This document shows positions 50,678 through 59,838 of a stretch of 64,000 nucleotides of DNA, in pieces. The stretch comes from Acholeplasma sp. CAG:878 (GTDB lineage Bacteria; Bacillota_I; Bacilli_A; RF39; UBA660): NCBI GenBank assembly GCA_000432255.1, contig HF989926.1, positions 65 through 64,064 on the forward strand. Direction: 5' to 3'. Both the position numbers and the translations under genes were made by a program. Under the pieces are notes generated by a model, which worked only from the letters and a program-made list of their open reading frames with translations, did not search any database and was not told where the DNA came from. Position 1 is the first letter of the stretch. Every line of letters starts with the position of its first letter.

Positions 50678-50762
50678 GCTTGTGTGGCGGAACTGGTAGA
50701 CGCGCACGACTCAAAATCGTGTAACTTATGTTGTGAGGGTTCGATTCCCTCCACAAGCACCA
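50678..50762 (+). tRNA. tRNA-Leu (anticodon CAA)
   Basis: Cloverleaf folded by hand: acceptor GCTTGTG/CACAAGC, D-arm, anticodon stem CACGA/TCGTG with loop CT-CAA-AA (U33, A37), a long variable arm, T-arm GAGGG-TTCGATT-CCCTC, discriminator A and an encoded CCA. Track ORF 50684-50878 is spurious. Confidence 0.85.
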
Positions 50763-50861
50763 GATTGATAGGAAACTCGAACTTTTATAAATTCGAGAGT
50801 AATAAATTACTAACAGAAATGTTAGTTTTTTTGTTATTTAAGAAAGGAAAAGTGATGAGTT

Positions 50862-51131
50862 ATGACAATAGAAACTAAAGAACTTGTAATAAGTGAAGAA
50901 TTAAAAAGAAAGGTAGAAATGATTTGTAGGTTTGCTTATGTTGACTACACTATCACAAATGGAAATATTAAAAGTATTAAAAACACAAATATTGCTATGG
51001 TTAAACCTCATATAGTAAAAATTAAAGGTATTGATTATTTAATATTTGATGAATGTGATGATATTTTTATAAATGGTTATAAAGAGAAAATTAAGTTTAA
51101 AGATTTTGAAGAATATATTAAAACCCACTAA
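50862..51131 (+). CDS. Hypothetical small protein (89 aa), first island gene (possible recombination directionality factor, speculative)
   Basis: Clean ORF. No recognisable motif. Confidence 0.45.
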   Translation: MTIETKELVISEELKRKVEMICRFAYVDYTITNGNIKSIKNTNIAMVKPHIVKIKGIDYLIFDECDDIFINGYKEKIKFKDFEEYIKTH

Positions 51132-51135
51132 AACC

Positions 51136-51164
51136 TTGACAAATTAAGAATATATGTATATAGT
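51136..51164 (+). promoter_or_regulatory. Sigma-A-type promoter (TTGACA-17-TATAGT) upstream of the recombinase leader
   Basis: TTGACA at 51136-51141, a 17-nt spacer, then TATAGT at 51159-51164. Confidence 0.6.
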
Positions 51165-51221
51165 ATAGAACTAATAAAAGCAAGCAGTATCGCTTTTTAA
51201 AGGGGAAAGAGAGGTACTTCT

Positions 51222-51321
51222 ATGATTAAAAGCACATATAACATATTTAAAATTTATACTTATTTATTTAAGAGGAGTCAAAGGTATTAGTCCCACCTAG
51301 TATTTTTGACCCCTCTTTTTT
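51222..51321 (+). promoter_or_regulatory. Leader ORF (22 aa, [22 protein letters not shown]) overlapping a terminator-like hairpin and U-run: candidate attenuator of the recombinase gene
   Basis: An RBS-like GGGGAAAGAGAGG precedes the ATG at 51222. The leader stop at 51288-51290 lies in the loop of hairpin GAGGAGTCAAA (51272-51282) / TTTGACCCCTC (51305-51315), which has one mismatch. TCTTTTTT follows, and the recombinase RBS and ATG come immediately after. Confidence 0.45.
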
Positions 51322-51346
51322 GATAGAAAGTGAGGTTGATAAAAGT

Positions 51347-57022: not shown

Positions 57023-57059
57023 AGCACAATAACTTAATATAAAAAGTATTGTGCTTTTT
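57023..57059 (+). terminator. Rho-independent terminator
   Basis: AGCACAATA-(15 nt)-TATTGTGCT hairpin followed by TTTT. Confidence 0.65.
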
Positions 57060-57114
57060 ATATTGTTTATAAGAAAATAGAAAAATATGATATAATTAAA
57101 TCGAAAGATAGGAA

Positions 57115-58104
57115 GTGATTGAATTGAATATTATTGAAGTAAAAAATCTTTCAAAAGATTATAAATATAAAGTTAGAAATGAAGAAAAAGGTTTTTTATA
57201 TAATTTATTTAATGAACAAGAAAAAGTTGTAAAAGCCGTTAATAATATTTCCTTTAATGTTGAAGAAGGAGAAACAGTTGCATTTATTGGACCAAATGGT
57301 GCTGGTAAATCAACTACTATAAAAATGTTAACAGGTATTTTATACCCAACAAAAGGTGATATCAAAATATGCGGTTTAACTCCAATTAAAGATAGAAATA
57401 AACTTGCTTTTAAGATTGGTACTGTATTTGGACAAAGAAGTCAATTATTACCAAATTTACCATTAACAGAAAGTATGGAAATGTTTGGTGCAATGTATGA
57501 TATGGATAAAGTTGCAATAAAGAAAAGAATAAACGAATTATCAGAATTATTTGATTTGAAAGAATTTATTAAGCAACCAGTTAGAAAACTTTCTTTAGGT
57601 CAAAGAATGCGAGCTGAAATTGCAACATCTTTAATACATAGCCCTAAAATTATATTTTTGGATGAGCCAACTATTGGACTTGATGTTGTTTCTAAAAAAA
57701 GTTTAAGGGATTTATTATTAAAGATTAATAAAGAAGAAAAAGTTACAATTTTTTTAACAAGTCATGATACTGAAGATATTCAAAGTATTTGTGATAGATG
57801 TGTAATCATAAATCACGGAAAAATAATTATTGATACTTCGACAAAACAATTAATAAGTGATTATGTTAAAAATAAAAATATAATTATAACTCCAAATGTA
57901 GAGTTTATAGAATTTCCAAAATTATCAGCTGGTATGACATATATTAAAAAAAGTAAGAATCAAGTAACAGTTTTAGTTGATACTGAAAAAATACATACTC
58001 AAAAAGCCTTACAAGAATTAATTAAAGTTTTTGATATTGATGATGTTAATATAGATAATGAATCACTTGAAAATATTATAAGGAGTATTTATGAAAAAAA
58101 TTAA
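57115..58104 (+). CDS. ABC transporter ATP-binding protein (ABC-2 subfamily) with C-terminal extension
   Basis: Walker A GPNGAGKSTT, signature LSLGQRMR and Walker B IIFLDEPT. The start is uncertain (GTG 57115 or TTG 57124). Confidence 0.85.
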   Translation: MIELNIIEVKNLSKDYKYKVRNEEKGFLYNLFNEQEKVVKAVNNISFNVEEGETVAFIGPNGAGKSTTIKMLTGILYPTKGDIKICGLTPIKDRNKLAFKIGTVFGQRSQLLPNLPLTESMEMFGAMYDMDKVAIKKRINELSELFDLKEFIKQPVRKLSLGQRMRAEIATSLIHSPKIIFLDEPTIGLDVVSKKSLRDLLLKINKEEKVTIFLTSHDTEDIQSICDRCVIINHGKIIIDTSTKQLISDYVKNKNIIITPNVEFIEFPKLSAGMTYIKKSKNQVTVLVDTEKIHTQKALQELIKVFDIDDVNIDNESLENIIRSIYEKN

Positions 58105-58888
58105 GTTTGCTTTTACTGTCATAAAAATATTCATGAAAAATCAAATGCAAGATAGAACAAACTTAATATTAGATGTTTTCAATATGGTATCAAGGTGCTT
58201 GATTGTATTCTTATTATATGCTTATATATTTAAGTTGCAAGGTGGAAGTATTAATGGAGTAGATTACAAAACAACAATGTGGAGTATGTTTATTTATTTT
58301 TGCATTATGATTTTAAATATTAGAAGATTAGATAATGTTATAATGACAGAAGTTAAAAGTGGGAATGTTGAAATGTTTATGAATAAACCTACTAATTATT
58401 TAACAATTAGTTTTATGAAAGTAATTGGTCAAGGTATATTTTCATTCTTATTCATAAGTATTTTAGGAGCTATAATTATGGCGTTATTTGTAGGTATTCC
58501 TAACTTAAATTTATCAGTTTTTATACCTACATTTATAATTACATTATTTTTAGGTCAAATATTAGGTTTATTAATATATGGAATAATAGGGCTTATGGCA
58601 TTTTTTATACAGGATATACGACCAATACATTGGATAGTAGATAAATTTGTAATGATACTTGGTGGAAGTTATTTACCAATATCAATGTTTCCAAATTTTA
58701 TGAAAATAATTGCTTATGTAAGTCCATTTGGTGCAATTAATTTTGCTTCAAGTACCGTGTATGATTCTTGGAATAATGAGTTTATTATGAGAATTGCATT
58801 ACAATTGTTATGGATAGGTATTTTTGGTATATTAATGCACTATGTATATGAAAAATCAAAAGAAAAGGCAATGATAAATGGAGGTTAA
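58091..58888 (+). CDS. ABC-2 family transporter permease
   Basis: Six-TM permease, translationally coupled to the ATPase gene. Confidence 0.7.
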   Translation: MKKIKFAFTVIKIFMKNQMQDRTNLILDVFNMVSRCLIVFLLYAYIFKLQGGSINGVDYKTTMWSMFIYFCIMILNIRRLDNVIMTEVKSGNVEMFMNKPTNYLTISFMKVIGQGIFSFLFISILGAIIMALFVGIPNLNLSVFIPTFIITLFLGQILGLLIYGIIGLMAFFIQDIRPIHWIVDKFVMILGGSYLPISMFPNFMKIIAYVSPFGAINFASSTVYDSWNNEFIMRIALQLLWIGIFGILMHYVYEKSKEKAMINGG

Positions 58889-58890
58889 TT

Positions 58891-59682
58891 ATGGGAAGTG
58901 TTAAATTAGCTTTATTGAATATAAAGAAAAACTTTAGAAACGAAAAAGAATTGAAAAGTTCCTTCATTATTTCAGTTGTAGGTATGGCAATAAATAATAT
59001 AGCATTCCTAATATTATGGTATTATTTTGGTAAAACAATAGGAGAATTAAATGGATGGAAACCAATGGACATTTTTGGTTTATATGGTTTTGGGACTATT
59101 TCTTATGGTATTGTTGCATCATTGTTCTCTGGAATGTTTGATATCCCAAATTATATAAGTAGCGGTAATTTTGACAAGTATTTATTAACACCAAAGAATA
59201 TACTTTTAAAAGTATCAACATCTAAAATATCAACAAGTGCTTTTGGCGATTTATTATTCGGGGTTGTTTGCTTTATTATATTTGCTTTTTGGAGTAAATT
59301 AACATTAATTCAATTATTATTATCAATTTTATTAATAATAATTGCTTCTATAATTTTTTATTCATTTTCATTAATATGTATGAGTATATCATTTTATTTA
59401 ATGGATGGTCATAATGTTTCACAAGGTTTATATGGAATGTTTTTAAGTAACTCTTTATATCATGGTGGAGCATTTACAGGATTATTAAGGGTAATATTTA
59501 CATTTGTAATGCCATCTTTATTGTTAGGAGCAATACCAGTTGAGATAGTAAAGAATTTATCAATTTCTAATCTGATTATGATAATATTATTAACTATATT
59601 TTGGTTTATATTATCAATTATGTTCTTTTATAAATCATTGAAGAAATATGAAAGTAACAATTTGTTTGGATTTGGAAGTTAA
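58891..59682 (+). CDS. ABC-2 family transporter permease (second subunit)
   Basis: Six-TM permease. Start is 3 nt after the previous stop. Confidence 0.7.
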   Translation: MGSVKLALLNIKKNFRNEKELKSSFIISVVGMAINNIAFLILWYYFGKTIGELNGWKPMDIFGLYGFGTISYGIVASLFSGMFDIPNYISSGNFDKYLLTPKNILLKVSTSKISTSAFGDLLFGVVCFIIFAFWSKLTLIQLLLSILLIIIASIIFYSFSLICMSISFYLMDGHNVSQGLYGMFLSNSLYHGGAFTGLLRVIFTFVMPSLLLGAIPVEIVKNLSISNLIMIILLTIFWFILSIMFFYKSLKKYESNNLFGFGS

Positions 59683-59770
59683 ACAAAGTAGCATAAAAAT
59701 TATTGCTACTTTTTCTATTCTTTGCTAAAATATTATTAGAAATTGATATAAAACTATAAATATTTCTAAT

Positions 59771-59838
59771 TTGTGAGTCAAAGTTTGAAATAACTTAACC
59801 ACTCGCACCAGATTGATTGATAGTTCGAACTTTTCGGA
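59771..59838 (+). repeat. Degenerate direct repeat of the tRNA-Leu 3' end and flank (attR-like)
   Basis: Shares TTGTGAG, CCAC..GCACCAGATTGAT and TCGAACTTTT with 50731-50790. Confidence 0.6.

Follow-up and report, generated by a model that had tools for sequence, protein, structure and literature searches.

A 64,000-nt stretch of contig HF989926.1 from Acholeplasma sp. CAG:878 (the window, whose coordinates are used throughout; ~25% G+C, standard genetic code) contains a tRNA-Leu(CAA) gene followed by an array of mobile-element DNA. We conclude that the first 4,907 bp behind this gene very probably constitute an active element, encoding a large serine recombinase (LSR) and a MobV relaxase, that inserts precisely after the CCA ends of tRNA and transfer-messenger RNA (tmRNA) genes, and that this element lies beside a graveyard of older relatives. 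The original prediction, read from the sequence alone, had taken the whole interval 50678-59838 for one island of ~9 kb delimited by the tRNA gene and a degenerate copy of its 3' end. Loci from metagenome contigs and genomes (L001-L097) were used as the comparison set; L011 among them is an NCBI metagenome-derived record.

The nitroreductase gene located just upstream of the tRNA gene was looked up by exact protein identity. Ten conspecific contigs, each assembled from a separate sample (L001-L010), carried the tRNA gene followed directly by the KilA-N and ABC-2 genes. In BLAST comparisons, window 49000-50762 and the sequence from 55664 onward were contiguous on these contigs with 99-100% identity, and the two blocks shared the 6 bp GCACCA (L001 6421-6426). 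The occupied allele was found, by look-up with the recombinase, in L011 and at seven similar places; samples carrying the element include ERZ28564932, ERZ28563564, and the source of GCA_900521925.1. The segment 50763-55669 is polymorphic and is therefore the mobile unit of 4,907 bp. The KilA-N fragment, the ABC-2 operon, and the distal repeat at 59805-59838 were all kept in the strains without the element, the repeat being included in the empty-site contig L001, which reaches window 60998. The 9.2-kb interval 50678-59838 is a composite, not one element. The original prediction had itself named related genomes with the same gene order but without contiguous island-internal genes as the finding that would overturn it, and these ten contigs, which retain the right part without recombinase or relaxase, do so. 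Its further suggestion, either an old insertion or remnants of an earlier element, survives in part: the remnant reading applies to the right-hand 4.1 kb, and a single 9.2-kb island is not supported.

The same element was present at other tRNA-like genes. Copies with 99.6-99.8% nucleotide identity to the window element followed tRNA-Leu(GAG) in L012, tmRNA in L015 and L019, tRNA-Leu(TAG) in two species (L017 and L018), and tRNA-Ala(TGC) in two species (L022 and L023). Those in L012, L017, L018, L022, and L023 were full-length (4,907-4,911 bp; 99.7-99.8% identity), and the junction in every one of the copies was C-A-CCA/GATTGATAGGAAACTCGAAC. Because the flanking genes and species differ, these copies indicate a recent spread of a single element into at least five different target genes. 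Mobility is documented both by the ten empty-site contigs against the occupied alleles and by the copies in other surroundings, of which there are seven or more with an identity of 99.6% or higher. The left and right junctions and the empty site (attL, attR, and attB) shared only 5-6 bp. A megablast search of the 9.5-kb interval for near-identical sequences in plasmid and phage collections gave no match.

We then considered one genome per species and recombinase relatives at 61-100% identity to define the target pattern of the family. Relatives were found in 114 species-representative genomes, mostly metagenome-assembled genomes (MAGs) of uncultured gut Bacilli, 'Tenericutes', and Erysipelotrichaceae. 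At E <= 1e-30, homologues of the recombinase formed at least 8,000 clusters. Eighty loci were fetched from this set, and the left-end motif GATAGGAAACTCGAAC was located in 60. All 60 left junctions followed C-(A/T)-CCA, and 49 coincided with the exact 3' end of a gene called by ARAGORN, all in the same orientation. The targets comprised 14 kinds, namely tmRNA and 13 tRNA species (Leu, Gly, Thr, Ala, Cys, Phe, Lys, Ile, and Arg), to which three more tRNA junctions with more diverged left ends added Lys(CTT). The other 11 junctions lay behind a tRNA-like 3' end uncalled by ARAGORN or behind a further family element whose right end closes with CCA. The pairing of a serine recombinase with a tRNA end, which the original prediction had called uncommon, is genuine.

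Family right ends read TAGTGGTTGTTATACTTCCACCAAAAGGGC(A/T)CCA, and the core A or T before this CCA equalled the discriminator at the left junction wherever both ends were known. T-type elements were confined to Gly and Cys tRNA genes (U73), and every A-type element lay in an A73 gene; targets with G73 or C73 were absent from the surveyed family junctions. The two types were interleaved over the levels of recombinase identity (89% T, 88% A, 84% T), and their right ends were otherwise identical, differing at the core base alone. Since the core base always equals the discriminator, position 73 would lie in or beside the 2-bp crossover (C72-N73 or N73-C74), where both partners would need to match. 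The right junction of L019 (~8847-8858), GGGCACAAAATT (GGGCAC/AAAATT), has no CCA and fits a CAC core. This junction was considered as proof of a 3-bp core and was set aside as a hint at most, one substitution explaining it equally well. A mutated base would account for the missing CCA; alternatively, the tmRNA gene had no encoded CCA before the insertion and has since obtained it from the element.

Within the 4,907 bp lie an integration module, a relaxase gene, and a predicted origin of transfer (oriT); the full list of genes includes none for a type IV secretion system or a coupling protein. Judged from this content, the segment 50763-55669 fits an integrative mobilizable element that has its own presumed integration/excision module, relaxase, and oriT, and no pore genes. 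The LSR is intact, as had been predicted, with Resolvase (PF00239, 3e-33), Recombinase (PF07508, 1.5e-19), and Zn_ribbon_recom (PF13408, 1.3e-6) domains detected in this order. It matched the PHROG integrase family phrog_95 (2.6e-112) and the catalytic domain of the TP901-1 integrase (1.4e-20), fell under the NCBIfam cut-offs for XisF and Ccr, and contains a putative catalytic-serine motif, YKRVSTLDQ (residues 11-19; R-x-S-x-x-x-Q), read by eye. An extra C-terminal domain of ~145 amino acids (aa; residues ~476-621, window 52772-53209) lies beyond the usual zinc-ribbon and coiled-coil region and is kept in both subfamilies of the family, the second of which (X-type) is described below; its structural model (pLDDT, the predicted local confidence score, 82) had no fold match in the PDB. 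In a tblastn search against plasmids, matches to the LSR had at most 32% identity over about the N-terminal half, and none aligned past ~residue 347. The relaxase gene overlaps the 3' end of the LSR gene by 20 nt, again as predicted. Its product, likewise intact, exceeded the NCBIfam equivalog cut-off for NF041497 (121.1 bits; cut-off 100), matched Pfam Mob_Pre (1.3e-29) and the MobM structure 4lvi (1.4e-14), and carries the motif HNKRE and a metal-binding-type motif, both read from the sequence, which place it in MOBV1.

The left end of the element has the same order throughout the family: four variable bases, the near-invariant GATAGGAAA, a hairpin, a terminator-like hairpin, a ribosome-binding site, and the open reading frame (ORF) for an 89-aa protein. 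The left-end site had 0-3 mismatches in the 60 elements, whose recombinases share 61-100% identity. In the CTCGAA/TTCGAG hairpin the loops vary and the stem is kept, with a compensatory variant, CTCGGA...TCCGAG, in L083; the RNAalifold alignment of left ends was upset by the variable loop lengths and gave no usable covariation signal. The second hairpin with its T7 run (50810-50832) was missed by a consensus terminator scan. It looks like a putative element-borne terminator standing in for the tRNA gene's own, which now lies at 55680-55707. The 89-aa protein is 45% identical to a 91-aa ORF at the equivalent place in the second subfamily and has 725 homologue clusters. No Pfam domain was found in it, and its AlphaFold2 model (pLDDT 94; mixed alpha/beta fold) had no fold neighbour in the PDB. 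That it is an accessory or directionality factor, and so a candidate partner of the recombinase, is only a guess. The gap that separates this ORF from the recombinase gene contains, at 51136-51164, a sequence close to the sigma-70-type promoter consensus (TTGACA-17-TATAGT), with a 14-pair hairpin downstream of it at 51277-51310. Neither cargo ORF had a match in Pfam, PHROGs, PADLOC, or NCBIfam. In relatives below ~95% identity, the best alignment stopped near element position 3,865, ahead of the cargo, and the last ~90 nt were conserved again.

The oriT of plasmid pMV158 is TAGTGTG/TTATACTT, with the nick at G/T (PMC5863519). Element positions 55636-55652 matched the pMV158 nick region at 15/15 positions with a 2-nt insertion, and TGGTTGTTnTAC was kept in 17 diverse right ends of the family. 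The predicted MobV nick separates 55644 from 55645 and is 25 nt away from the right junction, and the predicted nick region presumably overlaps a recombinase-binding arm. If the nicked strand is the strand shown, transfer from an integrated copy would proceed into its right-hand flank, and an excised circle would bring in the 89-aa gene and the recombinase gene early.

The DNA to the right of the element is derived from relatives, presumably older ones. X-type elements, which form the second LSR subfamily, encode a 641-aa recombinase that is 47% identical to the window LSR over the full length, a homologous 91-aa ORF, and, in some of them, a Mob_Pre relaxase. Their left end, TTGACGAATCTGTTCGAAC, lies directly behind the tRNA CCA, and their right end reads AAGTTGTAGATAACAACCACTATCGCACCA. 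An identical 30-nt left end of this subfamily, TTGACGAATCTGTTCGAACTATTCGAACTT, was found in L012, L018, L029, and L050, at different tRNA genes and in different species, directly after the tRNA CCA or after an element, and has the same TTCGAAC motif at a similar distance from the CCA. The X-type remnant in the window is without left end and recombinase; segments homologous to it were found in the X-type elements of L093, L071, and L029. Its relaxase fragment (57 codons), which starts 267 nt past the tRNA gene in the empty-site genomes, matched the beginning of a 193-aa ORF of L093 with 70% identity over 57 aa and was 57% identical over 51 aa to the N-terminus of the Mob_Pre protein of L029, the counterpart of the L093 ORF. 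The decayed KilA-N gene and the ABC-2 transporter of the original prediction were both recovered with Pfam, the latter as a three-gene operon that stops 20 nt ahead of the right-end homology. A 98-aa ORF (56721-57017) had no match in PADLOC.

The distal repeat was likewise found to be real. Positions 50751-50786 and 59799-59834 were identical at 29/36 positions without gaps, the latter being the top match to this 36-mer anywhere in the window; when the downstream 13 kb was simulated 300 times with a first-order Markov model, no match exceeded 24/36. Its interpretation has changed. Window 59702-59836 matched L093 6473-6607 (77% over 139 nt, E 2e-18) and resembled L071 and L078 at the equivalent place, just upstream of their element left ends. 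The decayed tRNA 3' half that had been proposed at 59771-59810 aligned better with X-type right ends: 59751-59810 gave 44/56 and 45/53 identities with these (scores 21 and 19) and 36/55 (score 7) with the tRNA 3' half, and the TTGTGA highlighted earlier is part of the X-type end. The distal repeat is a fossil junction of older relatives that is derived from attachment sites. The fossil left end is the GATTGATTGATA variant, which was also present in L020 as a 76-nt solo left end, and no further element ends were found downstream of 59854 that would give the right boundary of this third remnant. The array would thus read tRNA, active element, X-type remnant, and third remnant. A similar stack was found in L029 at its own tRNA-Leu(CAA), and tandem arrays occurred elsewhere in L020, L029, L071, L093, and L097. 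In L097, a full T-type element is immediately followed by a 2.3-kb miniature element (10783-13057) with the left and right ends of the family; the miniature may have arisen by deletion and be non-autonomous, with mobilization in trans.

Features of the tRNA-Leu(CAA) locus in the window
Feature	Coordinates	Strand	Basis
tRNA-Leu(CAA) gene	50678-50762	+	ARAGORN; Rfam tRNA (60 bits); empty site in L001 stops at the same CCA
Left core GCACCA	50757-50762	+	Block overlap on L001; CACCA common to all A-type insertions
Integrative mobilizable element, very probably active, 4,907 bp including the right core copy	50763-55669	+	Absent from L001-L010, present in L011
Left-end site GATT-GATAGGAAACTCGAAC, presumed P' arm of the recombinase	50763-50782	+	Nearly invariant across the family
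Conserved hairpin CTCGAA-loop-TTCGAG	50776-50797	+	Read from the sequence
Hairpin and T7 run, CTAACAGAAATGTTAG TTTTTTT	50810-50832	+	Read from the sequence; kept in family left ends, stems vary
89-aa protein, core family gene	50862-51131	+	ORF at the same position in both subfamilies
LSR, 621 aa	51347-53212	+	Pfam, PHROG, catalytic motif
MobV relaxase, 414 aa	53193-54437	+	NCBIfam, Pfam, structure match
Cargo ORF, 164 aa	54686-55180	-	Variable segment 54686-55485
Cargo ORF, 78 aa	55249-55485	-	Variable segment 54686-55485
oriT-like region	55607-55652	+	Inverted repeat GTAGT-TATT-ACTAC at 55607-55620; TAGTGGTTG/TTATACTT at 55636-55652
Right core GCACCA, element end	55664-55669	+	BLAST block overlap and right-end junction sequences
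Remnant of an older X-type element (second LSR subfamily)	55670-59810	+	Kept in empty-site contigs; fixed in the species
Relaxase N-terminal fragment, pseudogene	55937-56107		tblastn to L093 and L029
KilA-N fragments	56309-56642		Pfam
ABC-2 operon, three genes, intact, at the cargo position	57115-59682		Pfam
Decayed X-type right end, finishing in GCACCA	59702-59810	+	Similarity to X-type right ends
Fossil left end of a third family member (first subfamily), GATTGATTGATAGTTCGAACTTTTCGG	59811-59854	+	80% over 55 nt to the L021 left end

The tRNA-Leu(CAA) gene, which the original prediction had also named, was called by both ARAGORN and Rfam; its 3' C72-A73-CCA end is the attachment site (B arm), and the gene remains whole in the occupied allele. 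Beyond the third remnant's left end, a truncated ORF with a Fic domain was found at 60186-60539 (PADLOC SoFic, 1.9e-20, model positions 87-187 of 361); in L001 it is 133 aa long with a Pfam Fic match. It may be cargo of the decayed third element. Elsewhere in the window, the first positions (1-1127) hold a 5S rRNA gene together with the 3' portion of a 23S rRNA gene, and the 947-aa product of 41779-44622 has a Big_3 domain and, at its N-terminus, a methylation motif of the pilin type.

These observations can be combined into a mechanism. The recombinase, as the presumed catalyst, would pair the joined ends of the circular element with a tRNA 3' end and exchange strands at C72-N73-C74. At tRNA-Leu(CAA), a short exchange within C72-A73-C74 would let the circle enter right after the genomically encoded CCA; consequently, the tRNA would stay intact and the junctions would share only 5-6 bp. 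The core A or T would set entry into A73 or U73 (Gly and Cys) tRNA genes. The MobV relaxase and the pMV158-like oriT may let a co-resident conjugative element transfer the 4.9-kb element. Every insertion would rebuild the tRNA-CCA target, so that newcomers would stack between the tRNA gene and older elements. The region from 55670 to at least 59854 would then be the resulting graveyard, made up of a decayed sister-subfamily element with its ABC-2 transporter and a fossil left end that belonged to a further member. Native terminators and left ends of other elements alike can form the downstream half of the target, which is free to vary, so that recognition would lie mainly on the tRNA side. The universal T-loop sequence GTTCGA lies in the tRNA gene at -14 to -19; its reverse complement, TCGAAC, occurs in the near-invariant left arm at +18 to +23, ~4 bp further from the centre. 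In characterized serine integrases, a shift of ~4 bp is expected between the zinc-ribbon sites of attP and attB, as in work on a Listeria integrase. We tentatively propose a 'pan-tRNA' serine integrase, a possibility that we put forward with less than even confidence: the enzyme would read C72-N73-CCA and possibly the T-arm, every tRNA or tmRNA gene that encodes its CCA and has the right discriminator would be a site, an A/T change in the core would retarget it between the A73 and U73 sets, and the oriT beside the attachment site would couple conjugative entry to integration. Such an integrase would be hitherto undescribed and widespread among uncultured gut Bacilli.

Several points weigh against this account. 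The excised circle was not found: when the joined ends (attP, CCACCAAAAGGGCACCAGATTGATAGGAAAC) were searched for in metagenome contigs, two exact patterns gave 0 and 1 matches, and the single match, in L097, was a tandem array. Terminal repeats were seen in none of the short contigs checked. The evidence is wholly comparative and comes mostly from short-read MAGs, in which a multicopy 4.9-kb repeat can yield chimeric contigs; such chimeras would affect the pairing of left and right flanks and not the individual junctions. The position assigned to the crossover draws on the A/T concordance and on the odd L019 junction, which a point mutation would explain. A hairpin around the predicted nick had no statistical support (folding z = -0.6), with 80.9% of cells paired against 78.6% in shuffled sequences and 14/500 shuffles as good. 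Insertion beside an existing left end, effectively an attL, is unexpected of canonical phage serine integrases.

Four other explanations were weighed. A single ~9.2-kb island (50678-59838), integrated as a unit and bounded by a degenerate duplicated tRNA 3' end, would account for a repeat that is genuine and significant, and everything between the repeat and the tRNA gene is indeed mobile-element DNA or remnant. The ten contigs that keep 55670-59838, distal repeat included, without 50763-55669, the recurrence of the 4.9-kb part by itself at other tRNA genes, and the better fit of the supposed tRNA half to another element's right end leave this explanation highly improbable. Alternatively, the element could be a mobilizable transposon of the Tn4451/Tn4453 type with low target specificity, its association with tRNA genes being mere bias. 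The modules are the same (a single large serine recombinase, a Mob/Pre relaxase, an oriT, and no known excisionase; PMC5704250), and the tolerated tandem insertion suggests a relaxed enzyme. Against this stand the 60/60 junctions at C-N-CCA, with 49 exact tRNA/tmRNA ends in uniform orientation, and a similarity to TnpX that does not extend past the N-terminal catalytic region and is weak even there (E 7e-6, residues 5-91); we therefore regard low specificity as unlikely, although it is the strongest of the four competitors.

That the MobV/Pre relaxase, instead of the serine recombinase, integrates the element at an oriT-like sequence would agree with the location of the oriT-like site just 25 nt from the junction. 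Pre proteins ('plasmid recombination enzyme') were originally described as recombination enzymes, which also speaks for this route. However, the junction CACCA/G is unlike the nick sequence, the short exact core is a signature of serine recombinases, and family members at tRNA ends keep the recombinase but can be without a recognisable relaxase, as in the X-type element of L071, where Pfam detected a recombinase but, in the three largest ORFs scanned, no Mob_Pre; relaxase-driven integration is very unlikely. We find it hardest to believe that faulty assembly or binning of metagenomes has produced the multi-tRNA pattern. The majority of the loci are MAG contigs, and some bins seem mis-assigned, such as a 'Saccharimonas' bin. 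However, each junction is contiguous and was seen independently across many samples and assemblers, several tRNA kinds recur at independent loci, and chimeras would not consistently give exact CCA junctions in one orientation. Insertion of a recombinase-driven element at CCA ends thus accounts best for the data.

This targeting challenges the working rule that tRNA ends are used by tyrosine integrases and that mobilizable elements with serine recombinases disrupt protein-coding genes (PMC5704250). No prior account of a serine-recombinase element that targets tRNA CCA ends was found, and we regard the window element as a serine-recombinase integrative mobilizable element with apparently novel targeting; the full-text literature, in which no description of such insertion was found, was covered incompletely. 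One element exploiting many safe and universally conserved sites may account for the spread over at least 114 species-representative genomes, and it accounts for the stacked remnants beside tRNA genes in these genomes. Island finders keyed to displaced tRNA fragments would probably miss elements that share a 5-bp core. An enzyme that works as proposed would serve as a broad-host integrase, with no engineered landing pad required and the target gene left unbroken; its specificity might then be switched by one base, which would be useful for uncultured or hard-to-transform gut Firmicutes. For the window itself, a strain-variable 4.9-kb element is set apart from a species-fixed remnant with a functional-looking ABC-2 transporter.

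Among known systems, Tn4451/Tn4453 (TnpX and TnpZ; Clostridium perfringens and C. difficile) are like the element in being small, with a MobV-type relaxase and no pore of their own; they also have an oriT and a short crossover, as predicted for the element. Their crossover is GA. The weak TnpX match (E 7e-6), the C-(A/T)-CCA core, and the strict tRNA/tmRNA targets place the window element outside that family. Tn4451, which uses a single large serine recombinase for integration and excision and has a Mob/Pre relaxase, shows low target specificity (PMC5704250), whereas the window family was found only at tRNA/tmRNA CCA ends and its predicted oriT is located at the element end, adjoining the attachment core. 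The relaxase is homologous to MobM of pMV158, the MOBV1 prototype, and the predicted nick region (TAGTG..TG/TTATACTT) corresponds to that of pMV158; however, pMV158 is a replicating plasmid with its oriT just upstream of mobM, whereas the predicted oriT of the element, which integrates, lies ~1.2 kb downstream of mob, beside the attachment site.

In two published accounts, islands with tyrosine integrases preserve the tRNA gene and accumulate in tandem (PMC4383910, PMC5704250); a duplicated tRNA fragment marks the island end (PMC4383910). As portrayed there, Islander-type islands resemble the window element in their insertion at the 3' part of tRNA/tmRNA genes, the kept gene, and the tandem build-up, and differ in their unrelated recombinase and in the displaced tRNA fragment, instead of which only 5-6 bp are shared here. 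No tyrosine-recombinase domain was detected in the ORFs scanned between 44.8 and 64 kb, and the element falls outside the Islander definition. NBU1-like elements are tRNA-targeting mobilizable elements with tyrosine integrases. The tyrosine integrases of tRNA islands are not known to use more than one tRNA each, whereas the window element uses at least five different genes.

Among elements with serine recombinases, the streptococcal mobilizable elements in the surveys of Guedon and Coluzzi share a single serine recombinase and very short flanking repeats with the window element; however, mobilizable elements of this kind integrate within genes, tRNA 3' ends being used by tyrosine integrases, and the streptococcal ones disrupt protein-coding genes such as rumA (PMC5704250). 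CcrA, CcrB, and CcrC of SCCmec are large serine recombinases like the LSR, which scored 131 bits against CcrB in NCBIfam. The Ccr equivalog cut-offs, at 700-900 bits, are far higher, and SCC elements differ further in their rlmH target and in being without a relaxase. Ccr recombinases leave functional the conserved gene whose 3' end they target, and they form tandem composite arrays. The 'multi-targeting' LSRs of Durrant et al. (2022), in both versions of which the word tRNA has 0 occurrences, resemble the window LSR in using several targets per recombinase with a common short motif. They differ from it in that all targets of the window LSR belong to one functional gene class and are entered at one exact position.

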